Of a DNA stretch of 64,000 nucleotides, positions 40,854-61,189 are shown one piece after another; within the stretch, counting starts at the first letter, position 1, and the number at the start of each line of letters is the position of its first letter. Made by a program: the position numbers and the translations under genes. The stretch is from a virus. Taxonomy: Duplodnaviria > Caudoviricetes. Where the stretch lies: the IMG/VR virus record IMGVR_UViG_3300028591_000071; one strand, 5' to 3'. A model generated the notes under the pieces. The model searched no databases, was not told the DNA's origin, and saw nothing but the letters and a program-made list of their open reading frames with translations.

Positions 40854-41432
40854 ATGAACCAACTTTCACAAACACAGGCGAATGTAGAATGGACGAAATT
40901 CTACGGAAAATTTGATGAACTTGGCTTAACCAAGTTTTATGATATGGATAAACTGCAGGAGGAAATGATTGAATCTCCCTGCACTACAAACGAAGATGCG
41001 GGAACCGCTTATAAGGGTGCTCTTCTCATGCACATTATTATGGTAATGGGTCTTTCTCAGCGTATTGCAAAGATGATTTCAGGAACATTCTCAATTGACG
41101 AAAATTCGCTGATGAAGGTATGTATGCTCATGCATCTTTCAAAGCGCCACATGTTCGAGGAATCGACGAATGATTGGGATATCAAAAGAGGTTATCCGTT
41201 CAAGTTCAAGGAAACGGGAGGAGTACTCAGTACGGGAGAAAGAAGTATTCTTGAAGCGATGAACAACGGTGTTAAATTCACACAGGAAGAGTTTGAAGCG
41301 ATGCGTGCGATGGATAACGACGATGCTTCAAAGAAACCGTTCCAAGGAATTATGACAACCGTTATCCGTCAGGCGAATGAACTCGCATATTCAATCGAAA
41401 AGGAAAGATATAAGAAGATAAAGAATCAGTAA
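40854..41432 (+). CDS. HD-domain-like protein with degenerate HD motif
   Basis: AYKGALLMH..LMHLSK..GERS..EEFEAMR pattern; His-Leu replaces His-Asp. Confidence 0.6.
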   Translation: MNQLSQTQANVEWTKFYGKFDELGLTKFYDMDKLQEEMIESPCTTNEDAGTAYKGALLMHIIMVMGLSQRIAKMISGTFSIDENSLMKVCMLMHLSKRHMFEESTNDWDIKRGYPFKFKETGGVLSTGERSILEAMNNGVKFTQEEFEAMRAMDNDDASKKPFQGIMTTVIRQANELAYSIEKERYKKIKNQ

Positions 41433-41932
41433 TGAAAGTTAAATTCAAGAAATTAAGGGAGAATGCTAAACTCCCAACCAAGGCACACGATGATGATTTC
41501 TGTTATGATGTATATGCTTGTGACTGTGAGGAAGTAGCACCGAATGTCTATAAGTATCCGCTCGGTTTCGCATTACAGATTGATGAAGATGAAAGAATGT
41601 CATTTCCGGAAGGAATACCTCATCTAACTAAGGAAATATGCATAAACATGAGCCATAGGGCAATCCTTTCCATTGATTTCCGTCCGAGAAGTTCAGTGTG
41701 GAAGACAGGAATGGTTCTCTGCAACTCTTGCGGAACCGTTGACAGGGGATATACCGGAGAGGTTTGCGCATTTTTCTATCATGTAATGCCCGATATGCCA
41801 AAATATGAAGTTGGCGACAGGGTGGCACAGATGAAGATTGGATTCACCGTGCCGATTGAATTTGTTGAGGTTGAAGAACTTGATGAAACAGAACGCGGAG
41901 ACGGAGGATTTGGAAGCACGGGTAAGAAATAA
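41432..41932 (+). CDS. dut: Trimeric dUTPase
   Basis: RPRSS, GTVDRGYTGE, GDRVAQ, RGDGGFGSTG. Confidence 0.95.
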   Translation: MKVKFKKLRENAKLPTKAHDDDFCYDVYACDCEEVAPNVYKYPLGFALQIDEDERMSFPEGIPHLTKEICINMSHRAILSIDFRPRSSVWKTGMVLCNSCGTVDRGYTGEVCAFFYHVMPDMPKYEVGDRVAQMKIGFTVPIEFVEVEELDETERGDGGFGSTGKK

Positions 41933-41964
41933 AAACGGAGCAGTTATCTGCCCCGTTTTTTTTT
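41931..41964 (+). terminator. Terminator after dut; its T-tract is the insertion target
   Basis: AAAAACGGAGCAG..CTGCCCCG followed by T9. Confidence 0.8.
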
Positions 41965-41989
41965 GGAACTATATACCTGTTGTCCACAA
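41965..41989 (+). repeat. Left terminal inverted repeat GGAACTATATACCTGTTGTCCACAA
   Basis: Exact reverse complement at 43227-43251. Confidence 0.95.
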
Positions 41990-42057
41990 AAGTAATGTAA
42001 CTAATTGAAAATAATACAAAAAAGTCCGGAATTATCCCTTTTAGTGTTGCAAGAATT

Positions 42058-42223
42058 ATGGATTTTTATGGATGAATTTTGTTTCCGCATGAACCATCGC
42101 AAGGTTGAGGACGGATTTGCAAGCCTTATGAGATTGTCTGTTGTGGTAAAAATAAAAAACCCCACATTATATAGGGCGCGAATACGCCCGCCAATAATAG
42201 GGGTATATGCAAATATACTATAA
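42058..42223 (+). pseudogene. IS1595-family transposase remnant (C-terminal fragment)
   Basis: MDEFCFRMNHRK matches the family's YLDEFxFRxN motif; rest of the DDE domain is absent. Confidence 0.7.
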
Positions 42224-42285
42224 ATATTCCTTATTTCCAAATAATTCAAAAAAAAAAGGAACTATTTATAGATAAATGCAAATAT

Positions 42286-42741
42286 ATGATTAACCCTTCA
42301 GAAACAGATACAGTATCTGCCAATTTTATCATAAAAGACCCTCGTAATGACATCCCACAGAATATTAGTGGAGATAAGATTGCCATGCCTGCCACATCCT
42401 CAAATTATGGTGCAGACTATGTTTCAGAATGTAAACAAACAATCCAACTTAATGAATCTGACTTAAGAATGATGGTTCAAGAATGTGTAAGAAGAATTAT
42501 AACTGAAGAATCATACAAGCCTATAGCACACAATAAAACTATCAAACTACCCAATGGTGTGGAGGTAAAGTCTTTAGTTACTTTATCTGACGGTGCTGGT
42601 AGGTTTGATATTTATGAGGATGATGGCTGTTATGTGGTGAGAAACAGGAATCGTGATGGAGACAAAGACAGCCATCCGTGGTACATCTTTCCTGAACTAC
42701 TGTCTGCACTTAAGAAACTACCTAATCTTCCACTACGGTAG
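42286..42741 (+). CDS. Passenger protein with L-x-E helix motif, behind phage late promoter
   Basis: IQLNESDLRMMVQECVRRIITE; AACTATTTATA at 42260-42270. Confidence 0.75.
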   Translation: MINPSETDTVSANFIIKDPRNDIPQNISGDKIAMPATSSNYGADYVSECKQTIQLNESDLRMMVQECVRRIITEESYKPIAHNKTIKLPNGVEVKSLVTLSDGAGRFDIYEDDGCYVVRNRNRDGDKDSHPWYIFPELLSALKKLPNLPLR

Positions 42742-43153
42742 TTTTTCTATTACCAATCTCTTTGTTCTCTTTCTCATTGACCTTGAAGAAATATTGAGCT
42801 AGTATTTCTGACTCTACTATTTTAGGGTCTTCATTCTCTTCACATGTGTATAGTGCAAGATAGTCAGGTTTATATTTGCTTATCTTGGGGAACTTATCAT
42901 GTTCATGTGGGCGGTCATCAAAATCATCTGACTTCCCAAGATAAACTAAAGAATGATTGCACTTCATCCAACTATTCCCATTGTCAACAATACCTTCAAC
43001 CTTTGCAATGCACTTTGAGAAAGAATAGATTCCTTTCCCACCAGTTGTATCTAACGGTTCATCAAATGAAAACCCCTCAATAGAGTATAGTTGAAACTTT
43101 TTCCCACACATTGTGTAAGTGCGACCTTCAAGTTTTTGGGGAATGAATGACAT
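42722..43153 (-). CDS. GIY-YIG-like nuclease domain protein (passenger)
   Basis: GIYSF...VYLGKS...RPHEH...VESEIL...N pattern. Confidence 0.65.
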   Translation of the reverse strand: MSFIPQKLEGRTYTMCGKKFQLYSIEGFSFDEPLDTTGGKGIYSFSKCIAKVEGIVDNGNSWMKCNHSLVYLGKSDDFDDRPHEHDKFPKISKYKPDYLALYTCEENEDPKIVESEILAQYFFKVNEKENKEIGNRKTTVVED

Positions 43154-43226
43154 AATTGTTGCTTTTTGGGCAAATATAATGAAAAACCACAGAAGATATA
43201 ATCAACTGTGGTTTTGTATATTCATA

Positions 43227-43251
43227 TTGTGGACAACAGGTATATAGTTCC
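43227..43251 (-). repeat. Right terminal inverted repeat
   Basis: TTGTGGACAACAGGTATATAGTTCC followed by T9. Confidence 0.95.
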
Positions 43252-43258
43252 TTTTTTT

Positions 43259-43927
43259 TTATTTTATTGTCGTTATGTAGTTCTTAATAGCGTTTGCGAC
43301 CGCTTCTTTAATTATTCCTTCATTTATTTCAGGATGATTTCGTTTGTATTCACCAAGCGCTGCCGCTACTAATTGTCCGTCGGCTTTGCTCATAAGCCGT
43401 CCGTTTGTTACCTGTGCTTGAATGTCGGCAACAGGCCTCGCTTGTTTTGGCTGAAAACCTCTTTTAGTCGCTGCAGGTTGTGCTTGTGGAGCGGTTTGTG
43501 CCACATCGGGATTTCCTGTAGGTTCAATTTGATTCTGTTGCTGTGGTACGGATTGTCCCTGTGTGTTCTGTTGCCTGCCTTGAGTTGTTTGCCCAGCCTT
43601 ATCCCTTGTCCACTGCCTTGCGTTAGCATTTCTTGTTACAGTATTATTATATCGTTGAGCGGCATATTCTTGTCCATTAAGATTTCTGAATTCATCTCCG
43701 TTATTGTATTTGGAGTATGGGTCGTAATTCATATTTTGATATCTCTGATAATTTCTTCCGGCATTGAAATCTCCCTTGAAATTATTCCACTTATTTCTCG
43801 CCCATTGATAAGCGTTTCCAAGGGTATGTCCAAGACCCTCGTCTTCCATTGCTTCGTTAATGGCTTCAATTATACTTTCTTTTATGATGCGATTAAGTCT
43901 TTCTTCGCTTATAACAACTTTTGCCAT
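43259..43927 (-). CDS. Hypothetical late protein with L/I-x-E helices at both ends
   Basis: VISEERLNRIIKESIIEAINE and INEGIIKEAV; Gln/Asn-rich middle. Confidence 0.8.
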   Translation of the reverse strand: MAKVVISEERLNRIIKESIIEAINEAMEDEGLGHTLGNAYQWARNKWNNFKGDFNAGRNYQRYQNMNYDPYSKYNNGDEFRNLNGQEYAAQRYNNTVTRNANARQWTRDKAGQTTQGRQQNTQGQSVPQQQNQIEPTGNPDVAQTAPQAQPAATKRGFQPKQARPVADIQAQVTNGRLMSKADGQLVAAALGEYKRNHPEINEGIIKEAVANAIKNYITTIK

Positions 43928-44018
43928 ATTACCACATTTTTATACAAATAAATATCTTGGAAGACCAAAATAGTTGACTTTATGCCGTTATTTTTTATTT
44001 TTCTAATAAAATACTACT

Positions 44019-44240
44019 ATGGAGAAAGCGGATATTTCCAAAGTGTCACTCGGTGACCTTGTCAATTACGAAAAACTTATCAAAAGCGTAATACTGAGTT
44101 ACGAAAACAGCATAAAGATGTATGACGGTTCAATTAAGACCGATAATATTGAATATCAGAAATATGAGAGACTTAACAAGATATATAAGAAAATCCTTGT
44201 TGAGTCAGAAAAAAGGATTTTGGAAACATGGGAAAAGTAG
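44019..44240 (+). CDS. Hypothetical protein
   Basis: 73-aa ORF after a TTGACT promoter-like site. Confidence 0.7.
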   Translation: MEKADISKVSLGDLVNYEKLIKSVILSYENSIKMYDGSIKTDNIEYQKYERLNKIYKKILVESEKRILETWEK

Positions 44241-45232
44241 GAACCAACCTGAAATTACTTATACATTCCCTCTTCTACGGAATGAAATCTGCCGACGACC
44301 TGATGCAGACTCAGGCGAGCGACGGAGATTCCATCATTGTTCAGCAACAAATTGGCGGAGGCGGAGTATTCGCAGATATGCTTGAGCAGAAACTGACTAA
44401 GGAAGTCGAGGAAATCCGCGACAAGCATTACCGCGTTCTTAAGGAGGCCGATAAATATTCAGCAAAGGATATGACGCTTGAAGAAGTTGAAATAATAAAC
44501 GAAAGCGGACAGCCCGAGACCGTTCTTGTGTTTTCAGGAAATGTGAAAAAAAAGACAAAGGAAGACTTTATGAAGCATGCATCCGTTTTCGAGAAAGAGG
44601 GTAACTATCTTTTAAGGGTTATTCAGGACAACAAGCAATACGAGAAGCAGTCAAGTTTCAACAATGTGTACATCCCAACCGGCCTTTACGACTATGATGT
44701 TCTTTTGACGATAGAACGAAACGGGATAATCCCAAGGTTCGAGATAGAGAAATTCGTGAAGAAGATTGTTGTCAGGAATAAGATTGGAACAGACCGTGCC
44801 GAGGTTGATTTATATCTTCCGTCAGAAGCCGGTCAGTTTTCAAAGACTGACGCAATTCTAATTTCAAACCTTTTTGCAATGTTTGAGTCTAAGAACTTGA
44901 AATCGGACATAACGGATTTTTGTGGGATACAATGGAACTGCGATAAAGCGTGGAACGCGGATGACCTATGCTTATTCAAATATGACGATGTTAAGCCGTT
45001 GGAGATAAATGTCTTTGACGGAAATTTCGTTATCACATTTGATTGTCATATAGTAGAAGACGGGACTGACATAACAGAAAAGTTTAAGACAAAAGACCTC
45101 GACGAAAAATATGAGAAGAAGGCAACCAAGCAGAAAGCCACGGACCTTTTCACGGCGAAGAGAAGAATAGACAGGGAAGAAAAAGAGGAGATTGATTTGA
45201 ATAACATGGGCGACACAACGCTTCAATTATAA
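44228..45232 (+). CDS. Hypothetical protein
   Basis: 334-aa ORF in operon. Confidence 0.8.
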   Translation: MGKVGTNLKLLIHSLFYGMKSADDLMQTQASDGDSIIVQQQIGGGGVFADMLEQKLTKEVEEIRDKHYRVLKEADKYSAKDMTLEEVEIINESGQPETVLVFSGNVKKKTKEDFMKHASVFEKEGNYLLRVIQDNKQYEKQSSFNNVYIPTGLYDYDVLLTIERNGIIPRFEIEKFVKKIVVRNKIGTDRAEVDLYLPSEAGQFSKTDAILISNLFAMFESKNLKSDITDFCGIQWNCDKAWNADDLCLFKYDDVKPLEINVFDGNFVITFDCHIVEDGTDITEKFKTKDLDEKYEKKATKQKATDLFTAKRRIDREEKEEIDLNNMGDTTLQL

Positions 45233-49598: not shown

Positions 49599-52210
49599 AC
49601 GCAAATTCACCAGCCAGAGTAATTAGCATGATAGATGCTATGAGAACGCTCACGGAAAATTTTCCGATGAGCATTCTTGATATTAGGCAAGGTACAACAT
49701 ATACATCTATCTTCATGTTCCTTATAGATGTTCTTCAGGCATGTGGTGTCAATATATATGATATTGTCAGCAGATTGTTTGAATCGGTATATGGGATAGG
49801 CGTGAAGTTGGATGGTGGAATCGCAACAATTTATGACACTATTGACAAGATAGACATAAATGAACAGAGCAAATTGCTTCAGGTGATAGAGGATGGAATA
49901 AAGGACATCATATTAGCCCTTCTTACAAGCATATTCACCTGTTCGGCGAATCCTGTCATACCTAATTGGTGTATGGACTATTCGGAAGGGTTGGATGAGC
50001 CCGACTTATCAAAATTTAAAACTTACATTGATAACGCAAAATCGCTCGCGAACGAATGCTGTGGCATAGAAATACCCGTTGGACTTTTTGATTTTTATGG
50101 GGCTATGTCGGTGAATCCATTTTCGGAAGAAGGCAAACTTTATTTCAATATAGAAGGCGGGGATAAATTTTACGAGAAAAAGACGCAGAAAATAGTCATT
50201 GGATATGAAACCAATCCCGATGATAAGGTACAGAAGCCAAAGGACAAGAAATATGTAAAATTATATCTCGATTTCGGCGAGGGGCATGATGATGCAACCA
50301 ACGAATACAGGCTTACGGCGGAAGATGAATTGGTTTTTTGCTTAAGCGAACCGATAGAAGACACCCTTTATATAGTTGCGAATTATAGAGATGCTGATAA
50401 TATGTTCAGAACGGAAAGGTTTGAAATCAGACCTGGTGAAACAAAGAGCAATGTCTTCTTTATAAGTCCAACGAGTCCATTAATAAGAGACGGGGAAAGG
50501 GTGAAAGAATATTTAATCAACGCTGCCGCATCAACGGTTTCCTATCGTAATTCTGACACGGGAAAAATATTTTCAAAAGACGACATTGTCATTTATTGGG
50601 ACAGGGAAATGTCAAAAGACGTCATAAATTATTGGCATTCCGTTGAAAATGATTCCCTGACATCTGAAGAGGGCATACAATGGTATGAGATTTCAAAAGA
50701 TACCGAGGAATATGATGAGTTCAGTTTATCTGATTTTGGAACAGAAACTGAAATGGATTTCCTATATTATGAGGAAGTTGAGAAAAGGGATGAGGTTGCC
50801 ATAAGAGTTCCGGAAGTCCCTACAAATCCCACGGAAGATGACCCTGATTACATAGTATGTTACGAAGGACTTGACCCTAACACGATGTATAGGACCAATG
50901 ATATGGATGCATTTTTATGGTACATCTATAACAGGTCGAATTATGAGCCACAGTATGAAGACAACAAGAATGTATGGGACAGTAGGTATAGTGCAAGAAA
51001 AAAAGGTATTGAAAGAGAGGGGGACACTGAATGGAACTGTTGGCTGAACAGCAAGATAGACGAAAACGATACGTTCAAATTATATGAAGACTGTGAAAGC
51101 GAGAATCCACAAAAAGAAGTTGAAAACCCGGAGATATACCCAATTATTCATCTTGAAAGAAATAACGATTCGATAAGGGTGTTATTCTCATCACAAACAT
51201 ATTTCAAGCCGAAATGGAAAAAAGATGAGGAAGATATTGACGGAAAGGTATTCAAATATTACAGGTTTAATGAAAATCTTTATCGTTTCAACAGGGATTA
51301 CCTGAACAACATACAGATACTCAATCCCAAAAGAATACTTTATGGAATGGTTGATTCGCTTCTTAATGGTGCCCTGACGGCCTTCCTTAGTGTAAGGCCC
51401 AACATCACCAAAAAGAAAACCGAAACCATGTTGTCACTGGCAATAAAAAAATATATTGAAGCCGAAGACGCCGAGGTTGAAGACTGTTATTTCACCTTCT
51501 CCAACGAGGAATTTGATGAAATGCTTAATGAGATGTTATTGGCAAGGTATTCGGCAACATATATGGGCGGAGAAGCAAACCTGACGAAAACCCATGACAT
51601 AATAGAATATATAAACACTATTGACCAAGTAAATTTCACTTCTTCATCAGACGGCGAGATAACGAAGATAAACAAAATAGTAACGGAAGTTACAACAACA
51701 CCATCGGTAGAAGGGTCAATAGATTACGGGATTGAATTTTCAGTAGACAAAGGGCTTTGGAACAGGTTGGTGTGGGCTATGGCCCTTCCTATGATTGAGG
51801 CTTTGTTTACACCAAAGGTTGTCCTGTTGTTCTTGATAAATTTCAGAATAATGGGAATAGCGAATTATCATGACCTTCTTGACAATGAACAGTCAAAGAT
51901 AATCACGATTATAACCAATAAGATTTTCGTACTGGTACGTTCAATCATTTCATTTATAAAAGATAAGATAGCGGAAATCTTGTTTGACATGGCGGTTGAA
52001 AAAATGGGGCCGCTTGTTGCTGATTATCTGCTTATCATATTGAAGGAGAGGATGGATGCGTGGATAGGTCTCCTTAAATCAGCGTTAAGATGCTTGAGAC
52101 TCAACATAATCGGATTCAGAAGGAACAAAGAAATCGGTGCAATTGATGATGTTAATTATGCGGATATAATAAACGACCAAACAAGGCCGGAAACAAAGGA
52201 CGAGTGTTAA
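49595..52210 (+). CDS. Large hypothetical, probable structural protein
   Basis: 871 aa, in operon with spike gene; hydrophobic helices at both ends. Confidence 0.7.
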   Translation: MNANSPARVISMIDAMRTLTENFPMSILDIRQGTTYTSIFMFLIDVLQACGVNIYDIVSRLFESVYGIGVKLDGGIATIYDTIDKIDINEQSKLLQVIEDGIKDIILALLTSIFTCSANPVIPNWCMDYSEGLDEPDLSKFKTYIDNAKSLANECCGIEIPVGLFDFYGAMSVNPFSEEGKLYFNIEGGDKFYEKKTQKIVIGYETNPDDKVQKPKDKKYVKLYLDFGEGHDDATNEYRLTAEDELVFCLSEPIEDTLYIVANYRDADNMFRTERFEIRPGETKSNVFFISPTSPLIRDGERVKEYLINAAASTVSYRNSDTGKIFSKDDIVIYWDREMSKDVINYWHSVENDSLTSEEGIQWYEISKDTEEYDEFSLSDFGTETEMDFLYYEEVEKRDEVAIRVPEVPTNPTEDDPDYIVCYEGLDPNTMYRTNDMDAFLWYIYNRSNYEPQYEDNKNVWDSRYSARKKGIEREGDTEWNCWLNSKIDENDTFKLYEDCESENPQKEVENPEIYPIIHLERNNDSIRVLFSSQTYFKPKWKKDEEDIDGKVFKYYRFNENLYRFNRDYLNNIQILNPKRILYGMVDSLLNGALTAFLSVRPNITKKKTETMLSLAIKKYIEAEDAEVEDCYFTFSNEEFDEMLNEMLLARYSATYMGGEANLTKTHDIIEYINTIDQVNFTSSSDGEITKINKIVTEVTTTPSVEGSIDYGIEFSVDKGLWNRLVWAMALPMIEALFTPKVVLLFLINFRIMGIANYHDLLDNEQSKIITIITNKIFVLVRSIISFIKDKIAEILFDMAVEKMGPLVADYLLIILKERMDAWIGLLKSALRCLRLNIIGFRRNKEIGAIDDVNYADIINDQTRPETKDEC

Positions 52211-57412: not shown

Positions 57413-58120
57413 CTATGATTCCAATTCAGGAAATTTCTTTATAATCAAATTTCTAAGGTATTTTATTTTCCCTTCATAACCCTTGTCAGATGCGTAACGC
57501 TTTCCGAGTTCGTTTACGAATTTGCCGGGTGTCATAAGGTCGTCTATCGTTTTTCCGTCAACGAGATAATGGTTCTTTAGAAGTTTGATGTAGTCATCGA
57601 CGCTATCATTAGGGTCATCATATGTAACGACATCCTTTCCGTTATCATAAGAGCCGACAGAGAACACGCTGTTCGTTCTCCTCGCCCTCTTCGTGGCTCC
57701 GAAACAACTCTCCTGATGCGCTGCCGCCATGAGGAACGGAAGGTCAAATCCTTTTTCCATTGCCGCCCTCACGAGAGTTTCAGGTTTAAGACCCGTTGAT
57801 TCCATCGTGAATCCTTGGTTCTTAAGGGCAAACTCCATGTACTTTCTCACATCATTCACCTTCTTGGCGAATCCTGTGGTATCAATCATTTCTGTCTGTG
57901 CTATGTTCTTTAACTGTTCCTTTTGTTCATTCGGTATCCCCATCCTAGAGATTGCCGCAACGATAACCGCAGTTGATACTCCAAGAGCCAATGCTTTCTT
58001 AATTTTTTGCTTCATTTCGTCAAATGTTCTTGATTCATTTAACGACTCTTGCAAAATGTATGCCAAACGCTGCTCCATCAGCAGCGTTTTAAATTGCGAC
58101 TCTGTGAGTATTACCCTCAT
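57413..58120 (-). CDS. Glucosaminidase/lysozyme-like (GH73) protein with L-x-E leader
   Basis: AAAHQESCFG, NSVFSVG, YASDKGYE; leader ILTESQFKTLLME. Confidence 0.75.
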   Translation of the reverse strand: MRVILTESQFKTLLMEQRLAYILQESLNESRTFDEMKQKIKKALALGVSTAVIVAAISRMGIPNEQKEQLKNIAQTEMIDTTGFAKKVNDVRKYMEFALKNQGFTMESTGLKPETLVRAAMEKGFDLPFLMAAAHQESCFGATKRARRTNSVFSVGSYDNGKDVVTYDDPNDSVDDYIKLLKNHYLVDGKTIDDLMTPGKFVNELGKRYASDKGYEGKIKYLRNLIIKKFPELES

Positions 58121-59050: not shown

Positions 59051-61189
59051 TTATTCCGATAATCCGTCATCAACGAGGCCTTCTTCCTTGGCTTCGCTTG
59101 AACCGCTTATAGCGTGCATGTTTTCAACCGCTTCACTTATAAGTTCCTCTCTTTCCAAAGAATCCTCATCAACGAGATTTTCAAATTTATCAAGGACTTT
59201 CCTTAGGTTTTCCTGTATGGTTACGCTCTTTCCTTCAAAATCATACGGTTCTTCAAGAAATCCGTCATCTTCTTCTTTCTTTGCTTCTGACAAAAGGTCA
59301 AAATACTCTTCTGTATAGGTCTTTGTAGCTTTCTTTTTGTATTCTTTGAGATTCGGCTTCTGTTTCATTATGAACTCCATGAGTGGCGTTCCATTGTCTG
59401 CGTCAGGGGCTCCGCCCATATCGGTTTCTCCTGTTTCTCCGCCCATGTCGGAACCGTCTTCAGTACCGGGCTCTCCGAGGTCCATATCCATGTCTCCACC
59501 CATGTCGCCTCCGCCAAGGCCACCCATCATGCCTCCGCCGCCACCGCCGCCGAGACCGTCGTCTTCGCCTTCGCCCTGTGCTTGTTGCTGCTGTGGCGAA
59601 TTCATTGCGTCATAATCTCCATAGATGCGGTCGGTCGTATCGAACATGCCCGTATGCTTGATGATGTTAGCCGTTGCTGCAAGTTCTGCTGCCATGGCCT
59701 TCTCAAGACGGATTTCGTTGAGCATATCCTTGATTTCAGAATCGCTCATCTTCATAATCTCCCTAAGAGCCTTGTGCATTGACATCATAGGGATGCCCGT
59801 GCCTGGGTCCGCAAGAGCAACCTGCATTGCATTAAGCCTCTTTGTAAGGTCATCAAGTTCCTGTGCTTCAATCTGTGTTGAAGGGTTATTGAGTGTAAGG
59901 GTGAAATTTCCAATCTCATCCGTAAGTCCCATGATGTAAAGATGAATCATCGCAATCTTGTTCAACTCCATTAGTATGAATTGCTGAATACGATTAATCA
60001 TCCTTGCGAAACGGACATCAATGAATGAAAGGTTCTGTCCCTTTCCGTTTGCTTCTTGGAAGTTAAGGAATGTTTTAGGAACACGCATTGCGGTCAAGAC
60101 TTTCAACTGCATGTATTCAACATCTTCCATCTGTACCTGACTGTTAGCAGCCTGAAGCGTTTCAATCGGGTTAGGTGCATCTTCCCTACGGACAGGAATG
60201 AAATAGTCGCTCGATACATCAAGGAAATTCTTCCTTAGGTCAACCTGTCCCGTCCCCGGGTCAATGATTGGCGTTCTCTTGAAGTTGTTTGCAATCTGAT
60301 TTACATATGCTTCAACATCTTGGTCGTCAATGTTTCCTACATAAATCTTATAAACACGCCTTTCAATCGCCTTGTCAAGTCTCCAAATGAGCATAGCGTC
60401 TTCCATCATGCTCCACATCCTCCAAGCCCTTCTTGCCTTATGAAGCATAGATACGCCGTAAGGAAGGAAGAACGAGTCGTTGAGTAATCTAAAGTGAGCA
60501 ACTTGCCAATTCCTGTAAGGGTTTTCTCCGTTATGGCCTCTCCAAATGAACTTAACCTCATCTGGTTTGATTTCTCCCGAGTTGGTCATCATTGAAGTGG
60601 TGTATGATGCACTATAGCCATTCTCGTCTCTATCAACTTCATAAACAGGCATCATCATCCATCCCATAACGCCATTATCCTTGCTTATGTTAAGCAATTC
60701 AAATGTGTTTCCGTATTTGCAAAGATGACGGGCTACCATAGGAAGCTCGGTGTAGATATGCAATCTGTTCACGAAAAGGTCTTCCAATATTGCCTTTGTT
60801 CTTTTTGAGCGGGAATAGATATTAAGCATCTTTCCCTTAGAGTTGATAGGACAAGTTTCTTCTGCAATGATATCAAGCGCGGTTCCAATTTCACAAGTCC
60901 CGTCCATGAGGTCAACATCACGGTACATAAGTTTAACCGCATTGTACCCTGCAAGGCTCTCCATTGCATTATCAGCCCCGGCCTTCTTCCATTGATATGC
61001 GAGATATTTCTGTTGTTTCAAAGACGCAAGTTTGCGCTCGTAATCTGCCTTATCTGTAGTCGTATATATAACCCTGTCTTGGTCTGATACAGTAGAAGGT
61101 GTGGTCATAACCGTCGCCGGAACATCTCCTCTGTTACTTCCCCTGAACCTGTCGTTCAATCTTTGAAATATGGTCCTGTTATCTGCCAT
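59051..61189 (-). CDS. Portal protein (gp20-like)
   Basis: LPYGVSML..AR, MEDAMLIWR...ERRVYKIYVGN, DYFIPVR, DVRFARMINRIQ. Confidence 0.92.
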   Translation of the reverse strand: MADNRTIFQRLNDRFRGSNRGDVPATVMTTPSTVSDQDRVIYTTTDKADYERKLASLKQQKYLAYQWKKAGADNAMESLAGYNAVKLMYRDVDLMDGTCEIGTALDIIAEETCPINSKGKMLNIYSRSKRTKAILEDLFVNRLHIYTELPMVARHLCKYGNTFELLNISKDNGVMGWMMMPVYEVDRDENGYSASYTTSMMTNSGEIKPDEVKFIWRGHNGENPYRNWQVAHFRLLNDSFFLPYGVSMLHKARRAWRMWSMMEDAMLIWRLDKAIERRVYKIYVGNIDDQDVEAYVNQIANNFKRTPIIDPGTGQVDLRKNFLDVSSDYFIPVRREDAPNPIETLQAANSQVQMEDVEYMQLKVLTAMRVPKTFLNFQEANGKGQNLSFIDVRFARMINRIQQFILMELNKIAMIHLYIMGLTDEIGNFTLTLNNPSTQIEAQELDDLTKRLNAMQVALADPGTGIPMMSMHKALREIMKMSDSEIKDMLNEIRLEKAMAAELAATANIIKHTGMFDTTDRIYGDYDAMNSPQQQQAQGEGEDDGLGGGGGGGMMGGLGGGDMGGDMDMDLGEPGTEDGSDMGGETGETDMGGAPDADNGTPLMEFIMKQKPNLKEYKKKATKTYTEEYFDLLSEAKKEEDDGFLEEPYDFEGKSVTIQENLRKVLDKFENLVDEDSLEREELISEAVENMHAISGSSEAKEEGLVDDGLSE

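Follow-up and report, generated by a model that had tools for sequence, protein, structure and literature searches.

What is the 1287-bp segment that lies between dut and the neighbouring 43259 gene of this rumen jumbo phage, and how did it come to rest there? In the window, which is the whole 64,000-nucleotide stretch analysed, dut ends at 41932 and the 43259 gene occupies 43259-43927 on the minus strand (222 aa). The first-pass annotation had described perfect 25-bp inverted repeats around this segment, each flanked on the outside by nine T, and this has been confirmed (Table 1). The two repeats are the only copies in the 64-kb window when up to 3 mismatches are allowed, two copies were recovered in none of 100 shuffled sequences, and the inverted repeat extends weakly to 35 nt at 89%. 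A search near the 43259 gene with 7 mismatches allowed in 22 revealed no further decayed ends. The right repeat is identical in the metagenome contig L104, in the Bacteroidales genome L002 and in the phage G002, all of them described below.

The canonical repeat of the family to which these ends belong is 26 nt long, with one extra leading G that is found at 177 of the 188 ends listed (94%); position 2 is G at all 188. The window copy has T at the position of the extra G on both sides, and therefore its duplication can be read as either 8 or 9 T. The pattern fits a duplication of 8 T in which the two end bases have been altered to T beside the homopolymer, and it fits equally a duplication of 9 T with ends one base shorter (25 bp). 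The first of these would probably leave the window copy immobile; it may be unable to move because the conserved outermost G:C pair is absent at both ends. The window repeats begin with GG and have the length (about 20-30 bp) of the terminal repeats of the IS1595 family, and the T8 or T9 on both sides agrees with the 8-bp target duplication of that family. In PMC8101967, a terminal GG is summarised as a feature of the related Merlin elements.

Table 1. Features of the element and of its insertion site (positions of the window).
Feature	Positions	Strand	Basis or remark
Two-way terminator of dut and the 43259 gene	41936..41964	.	Hairpin 41936-41955, then T9 (41956-41964) with the left copy of the duplication
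Left terminal inverted repeat	41965..41989	+	25 bp; family canonical form 26 bp with an extra G
Left subterminal region	41990..42035	+	Homologue of the leader that precedes the transposase gene of full copies
Transposase remnant, last 36 codons, IS1595 family	42041..42148	+	BLASTP against L097; inside ORF 42005-42223
Spacer common to L104 (98.7%)	42149..42285	+	Holds minus-strand hairpin 42159-42177 and promoter-like motif 42261-42270
c151, cut-down 302-aa passenger gene	42286..42741	+	N-terminal domain removed by an in-frame 453-nt deletion
c143, GIY-YIG nuclease-like passenger	42722..43153	-	143 aa; convergent with c151, 20-nt overlap
Presumed Bacteroidota -7-type box (TAnnTTTG form)	43171..43178	-	17 nt upstream of the c143 start; read from sequence
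Hairpin inside the right end	43183..43215	.	-15.0 kcal/mol, z -5.4; kept in L104 and L097
Right terminal inverted repeat	43227..43251	-	Perfect complement of the left repeat
Right T9 run, right copy of the target duplication	43252..43260	.	Sequence

The hairpin that follows dut folds at -15.8 kcal/mol (z -4.8, RNA fold) and was also retrieved by the terminator scan. No gene was broken by the insertion, because it struck the T-tract in the two-way terminator that dut shares with the 43259 gene; the terminator hairpin stands intact beside its T-run, as expected from the earlier proposal of a harmless insertion at a terminator. The stop codon of the 43259 gene includes the last two T of the right T-run, so that the right-hand T duplicate kept this stop codon and the hairpin stayed with dut. 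Transcription that reads past the 43259 gene can terminate at the hairpin inside the right end, since T5 comes after it on the minus strand. Both flanks of the element run on into intact phage genes. The same annotation had named empty-site alleles with one T-run as support for its reading, and none was found among the syntenic relatives L004 and L010 or in the JGI metagenomes, where the exact left-flank pattern gave 0 matches; in L004 and L010 other genes lie between dut and o73, and this interval differs among relatives.

The identity of the element was established from the short coding remnant near its left end. The frame of the remnant carries the motif ...MDEFCFRMNHRK... and aligns with the C-terminus of the transposase fragment of the contig L097 (BLASTP E 8e-14, 19/36 identical), with a 75% DNA match at 42067-42143 of the window. 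The L097 fragment scores 3.5e-19 on the Pfam model DDE_Tnp_IS1595; the remnant alone, which is too short for the HMM, gave no match in Pfam, this model included. The HMM comparison suggested at first reading thus failed on the remnant itself and succeeded by way of its L097 relative, and the claim that only a piece of a transposase is left held good, this piece being the C-terminus of an IS1595 transposase. The window copy has neither the DDE_Tnp_IS1595 catalytic domain (last 36 codons only) nor the N-terminal zinc ribbon, which is present in the transposases of L002, L094, L104 and L105 (E 1e-9 to 1e-10). It is not an autonomous member of the IS1595 family, because only the last 36 transposase codons are kept and they have no Pfam match. 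Elements with the same ends encode DDE_Tnp_IS1595 domains at E 3e-38 to 1e-40, and the left subterminal region of the window element is 78% identical to the left end of L094, 85% to L002 and 93% to an end in L124. The window element is therefore a decayed IS1595-type element that has lost its transposase. With its 1287 bp and two passenger ORFs, it lies outside the strict definition of a MITE (below about 800 bp and non-coding).

The search for the same end in other collections revealed that the window element belongs to a large family of elements carrying small genes between phage genomes, undescribed so far. In a collection of species genomes the end was found once, in the Bacteroidales metagenome-assembled genome L002 (contig CAMEWE010000005), where it is followed by a gene with DDE_Tnp_IS1595 (3e-38) and zinc-ribbon (9.7e-9) domains. 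An in-frame stop lies close to the start of this IS1595 copy (L002 1511-2858), whose far end is disrupted by a second insertion sequence (327-aa transposase, 30-nt inverted repeats). The end was found in five contigs of IMG/VR. It is present six times in the complete 393-kb phage G002 (IMGVR_UViG_3300038345_000251), and it is carried by a complete 355-kb phage of IMG/VR and by a 98-kb jumbo-phage fragment with a dut gene 78-79% identical to that of the window; the genome size of relatives of the window phage is estimated at 360-390 kb. An intact 325-aa IS1595 transposase lies between an end and a tail-sheath gene in L094 (35 kb), a 390-bp element in L091 (36 kb) carries a lipoprotein-like ORF, and in L105, as in L104, a transposase lies next to the same ends. 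A megablast of positions 41000-44500 of the window against the INPHARED phages gave no match.

A scan of the JGI metagenomes revealed the end in at least 120 contigs, nearly all of them from rumen samples. Over all the loci fetched, 188 ends and 44 inverted pairs were counted among the matches listed. Perfect 8-bp flanking duplications surround 21 of the 44 listed pairs, and 24 of 44 match in at least 7 of 8 positions; as a control, the next 8 bases outward matched in none of these 44 pairs. The duplicated sites of the listed pairs are 92% A+T, and the usual target of the family is a T-rich or A-rich 8-mer (T-rich, for example, in L093, L132 and L111). Elements range from 242 bp to 4.2 kb among the matches listed, the short non-coding siblings having 242-300 bp. 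Examples bear out both the proposal that other copies would carry different passengers and the proposal that a full IS1595 transposase would be found with the same ends. Siblings carry TnpB, small helix-tagged ORFs, a lipoprotein-like ORF and many other passengers, and full transposases occur in L094, L104, L205, L216 and L002, those of L205 and L216 being intact inside perfect duplications. One sibling element, in a relative of the window phage, holds a 98-aa helix-starting gene preceded by the promoter-like motif ACTATTTATA and sits in a T-tract between genes resembling the window's gene for a 192-aa protein and the 43259 gene.

A 398-aa TnpB lies inside 26-nt ends with a perfect 8-bp duplication in phage G002 (L088 2292-3647; G002 50291-51646); DDE-type ends around a TnpB are an unusual arrangement in prokaryotes. 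This protein has OrfB_IS605 and Cas12f-like TNB domains, and its stop codon lies 12 nt from the repeat, too close to accommodate the structured tail usually present; just outside the element lies another TnpB, 36% identical, with a normal tail. The possibility that the end repeat is a right-end or guide-RNA sequence of TnpB was considered and rejected, the tail of the neighbouring G002 TnpB being unrelated. The same phage has lone ends at 59066, 244367, 370811 and 372579 with no partner within 3 mismatches, which suggests frequent deletion or rearrangement at these elements. Its dut gene is split in two by about 1 kb encoding a 308-aa HNH-type endonuclease (L230 1495-3074; G002 105342-106906), and no known intron was recognised there by Rfam.

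The nearest copy of the window element is found in L104, a 3.6-kb Logan metagenome contig with the order IS1595 transposase (Pfam 9.7e-41), spacer, 302-aa gene, 143-aa gene, hairpin and right repeat; its left end is missing because the contig stops there. Positions 42149-42302 of the window correspond to L104 970-1122 at 98.7%, and positions 42299-43260 to L104 1572-2533 at 99.3%. It follows from these alignments that an in-frame stretch of 453 bases, or 151 codons, of the 302-aa gene is missing from the window, with a junction at 42299-42302 located at a short microhomology of a few shared bases. Over 949 bases the two copies differ at 3 positions (99.7% identity), and c143 is identical in both. 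The same passenger pair is found at 82% identity in L097, followed by a diverged end. The transposase remnant of the window resembles the L097 type and not the L104 type; therefore L104 is a close cousin and not the parent, recombination between elements must be assumed, and the direct parent was a mosaic of L104-like and L097-like relatives. The GC content is 46-49% in the L104 flank, about 41% in the window phage and 35% in the cassette, which moved between unlike genomes recently. The spacer carries on its minus strand (42159-42241) a terminator-like hairpin with a T-run (42177-42159), of weak fold (z -1.75); this segment was part of the parent transposon, since it is 98.7% identical in L104.

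The cargo consists of two convergent genes. c151 keeps a helix (residues 54-75) and a conserved C-terminal domain of about 70 aa. c143 has few relatives. Its family comprises 66 representative clusters. In an alignment of 61 members the residues Y43, Y71, G73, R81 and H85 are invariant, and G41, E114 and N126 are near-invariant (at least 90% conserved in the 61 sequences); the catalytic set of the GIY-YIG superfamily (Tyr of GIY, Tyr and Gly of YxG, Arg, His, Glu and Asn) is thereby preserved. The Pfam GIY-YIG model PF01541 is matched by 26 of the 61 relatives (best 1.5e-8) and PF20815 by 17, and c143 itself is below every Pfam threshold. An earlier structure model built from 6 sequences had a pLDDT of 51 and gave a meaningless fold search; the present model reaches 91.6. 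When it was compared with 48,161 chains, GIY-YIG domains took the five top places (Z 7.7 to 4.0), namely the UvrC N-domain (Z 7.7, rmsd 2.7, 82 aligned), T4 endonuclease II (Z 7.5, 99 aligned), 2lwf, I-TevI and Eco29kI, with the next unrelated chain at 3.9, although a Z of 7-8 is within the range that unrelated models can reach. With the same model Foldseek returned nothing at E <= 0.001; the row of highest probability (0.57), which ranked 11th by E-value, belonged to the GIY-YIG domain 2lwf. A phmmer search of c143 against the PDB sequences gave no meaningful match, Pfam, PHROGs and PADLOC gave nothing significant for the remnant, c151, c143 and c302, and no protein relatives of c143 or c151 were found in IMG/VR. 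Because the top structural matches are all of one fold and the catalytic residues are invariant, c143 is predicted from its alignment and model to be a GIY-YIG nuclease-like protein.

In 7 of 8 contexts, with nuclease identity falling as low as 37%, the gene for the nuclease converges on that of its partner and overlaps it, and this conserved pairing points to a joint function of the two proteins. The partner family is modular, with variable N-terminal domains, a helix of the form L-x-E-S-x-L-x-x-x-V-x-E-C-V and a conserved 70-aa C-terminal domain. Look-ups of the c151 C-terminal domain and of the c302 N-domain in the ESM Atlas yielded nothing usable, and the predicted complex of c143 with the C-terminal part of c151 scored 0.00, a result that gives no verdict and is evidence neither way. 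A tentative proposal, to which we give somewhat less than even odds, is that the cargo forms a two-part nuclease module in which the conserved C-terminal domain of the partner controls or aims the nuclease.

The expression signals of the cargo were analysed in the same way. The motif ACTATTTATA precedes c151 and is present at 11 sites of the window, where 0.24 would be expected (3194, 19230, 19654, 22285, 27756, 38082, 42261, 55658, 55720, 59038 and 61263), always 12-25 nt upstream of a start codon; it is probably a phage promoter element. It has also been seen in G002, L093 and L097. The box upstream of c143 is assigned by what we take to be the Bacteroidota -7 consensus. The truncated gene c151 thus appears to keep a phage-type promoter motif and c143 a host-type -7 box.

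Many small genes begin with a shared helix of consensus close to MK-x-T-I-x-L-T-E-S-E-L-x-x-x-I-x-E-S-V-x-x-V-L-x-E, which is found in the window in the 43259 gene, in c151 and in a gene at 57413-58120 (-). Among the listed loci of the at least 120 metagenome contigs, 43 ORFs start with this helix, against 0 in the reversed sequence, and 27 of the 43 lie within 300 bases of an element end among the matches listed; helix-tagged small genes are thus typical cargo. The Pfam family PF25734 matched the helix repeatedly and weakly (E 0.05-0.2, below threshold). In the c302 family the helix is internal, which argues against a simple cleaved N-terminal signal. The earlier view of a cargo adapted to the phage stood in part: the phage-type promoter motif and the shared helix agree with it, and the truncated gene, the base composition, more AT-rich than the phage, and the 99.7% identical copy in L104, a contig with a flank of 46-49% GC, speak against it.

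From these results, positions 41965-43251 are read as a non-autonomous, internally deleted member of a passenger-carrying lineage of the IS1595 family, with a probability of about 0.87, in support of the first-pass reading as a transposase-deleted IS1595-type cassette. The full element would have comprised a left repeat, a leader, a transposase with zinc ribbon and DDE domain, the 302-aa gene, the convergent GIY-YIG gene, a hairpin and a right repeat. Its DDE transposase would have recognised the 25/26-bp ends and inserted the element into the T-tract of the two-way terminator, duplicating 8 (possibly 9) A/T-rich bases. Two deletions, which would have followed the insertion, removed all transposase codons except the last 36 and, at the short microhomology, 151 codons of the 302-aa gene in frame. 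What remains could be moved only by a transposase supplied in trans, its genes may still be expressed and may benefit the phage, and the window copy, a decayed relic, is probably immobile.

Free-standing GIY-YIG genes of phages, such as the Seg genes of T4, act as homing agents, with the behaviour known from I-TevI. On a homing model of the segment, its spread and persistence would come mainly from the nuclease, which would cut alleles lacking the cassette in co-infecting phages so that repair copied the cassette in, and the repeats would be remnants of an older transposon. c143 has the GIY-YIG fold with the full set of catalytic residues, and its protein is unchanged while the transposase is gone; both agree with such homing. 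However, c143 has 143 aa without a separate DNA-binding domain, and wherever the flank can be read (window, L104, L100 and L097), an IS1595 end or a divergent form of one adjoins the module. Moreover, the flanks differ between copies, which fits transposition better than site-specific homing, and the 8-bp duplications seen throughout the family are the hallmark of a DDE enzyme, so that homing is considered improbable as the main means of its spread. Arrival of the cassette with its ends through recombination (illegitimate or homologous) at T-runs during a co-infection, and not through a transposase acting on this genome, is a still fainter prospect. It would account for ends that are missing the conserved outermost G:C pair and lie against homopolymer runs, for the rearrangement indicated by the several lone ends of G002, and for the different nearest relatives of the transposase remnant and the passenger module; identical T-runs exactly at the repeat boundaries are nevertheless the product expected of an 8- or 9-bp duplication, and T-rich 8-mers are the usual target of the family. 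That the segment is not mobile at all, its repeats arising by chance, from a join in the assembly or as a regulatory palindrome, has only the missing empty site in its favour and is refuted by the shuffled sequences, by the at least 120 contigs with the same ends, duplications and transposases, and by the continuity of both flanks with intact phage genes.

According to PMC11602168, phage genomes seldom contain insertion sequences and soon purge those that enter; the present IS1595 lineage is common in rumen metagenomes, is present in complete jumbo phages and shows fresh target duplications. As far as its genes can be judged from their sequence, the lineage carries small genes that seem ready for expression and not a transposase alone, which offers a testable route by which large virulent phages may gain and swap accessory genes, and the same ends in a Bacteroidales genome provide a link to the host. 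The biological effect of the window copy itself is perhaps small, because it is a decayed relic. Two new objects have been found, a transposon-borne GIY-YIG nuclease-like gene with its partner and a TnpB bounded by DDE-type ends. A broader proposal, which we regard as rather unlikely, is that this lineage serves rumen and gut jumbo phages as a dedicated system of gene cassettes, in which resident transposase copies would mobilise short cassettes that land harmlessly in terminator T-tracts and carry helix-marked genes, nuclease modules and TnpB, the N-terminal helix being possibly a virion-loading or docking signal. If true, it would amount to an integron-like exchange of accessory genes for large virulent phages, in which the GIY-YIG gene and its partner may also help the element to persist by cutting genomes that lack it.

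No description of the present IS1595 lineage was found in the literature, and transposons go unmentioned in a paper devoted to Bacteroides jumbo phages of the gut. As summarised in PMC8101967, passenger genes and 8-bp duplications are known in IS1595 elements (Siguier, Gagnevin and Chandler 2009). The lineage shares with the family, as it is outlined there, the zinc ribbon and DDE_Tnp_IS1595 domains, repeats starting with GG, 8-bp duplications and, in the full relatives, passenger genes between the transposase and one end. It differs from the family in that it is found largely in phage genomes, jumbo phages included, in its many gene-carrying derivatives without transposase, and in its passengers, which are mostly small genes with one shared starting helix and often phage-type promoters. 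MITEs are common to prokaryotes and viruses, Prevotella and Bacteroides phages among them, and can be used to link phage to host (PMC11602168). Like them, the elements described here are non-autonomous, with inverted repeats and duplications, and the lineage has non-coding forms of 242-300 bp too. That survey, which mentions neither IS1595 nor passenger genes, treats MITEs as short non-coding markers, whereas the window element is coding and has 1287 bp.

With regard to its cargo, c143 resembles the UvrC N-terminal domain (1ycz), T4 endonuclease II (2wsh) and the I-TevI catalytic domain (1ln0) in fold and catalytic residues, and its size is close to that of T4 EndoII. Unlike the small GIY-YIG nucleases, its model shows the GIY and YxG strands separated by a long predicted beta-hairpin, with a further hairpin at the N-terminus, and its gene lies inside a transposon with a convergent partner gene (in the 7 of 8 contexts given above). 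The promoter-stem-loop cassettes of T4-type phages are small accessory genes with their own expression signals that are shuffled between large virulent phages, presumably through recombination at regulatory sequences that recur in these genomes. The elements described here are similar to these cassettes in carrying accessory genes with their own expression signals, but they have transposase-type ends and target duplications.
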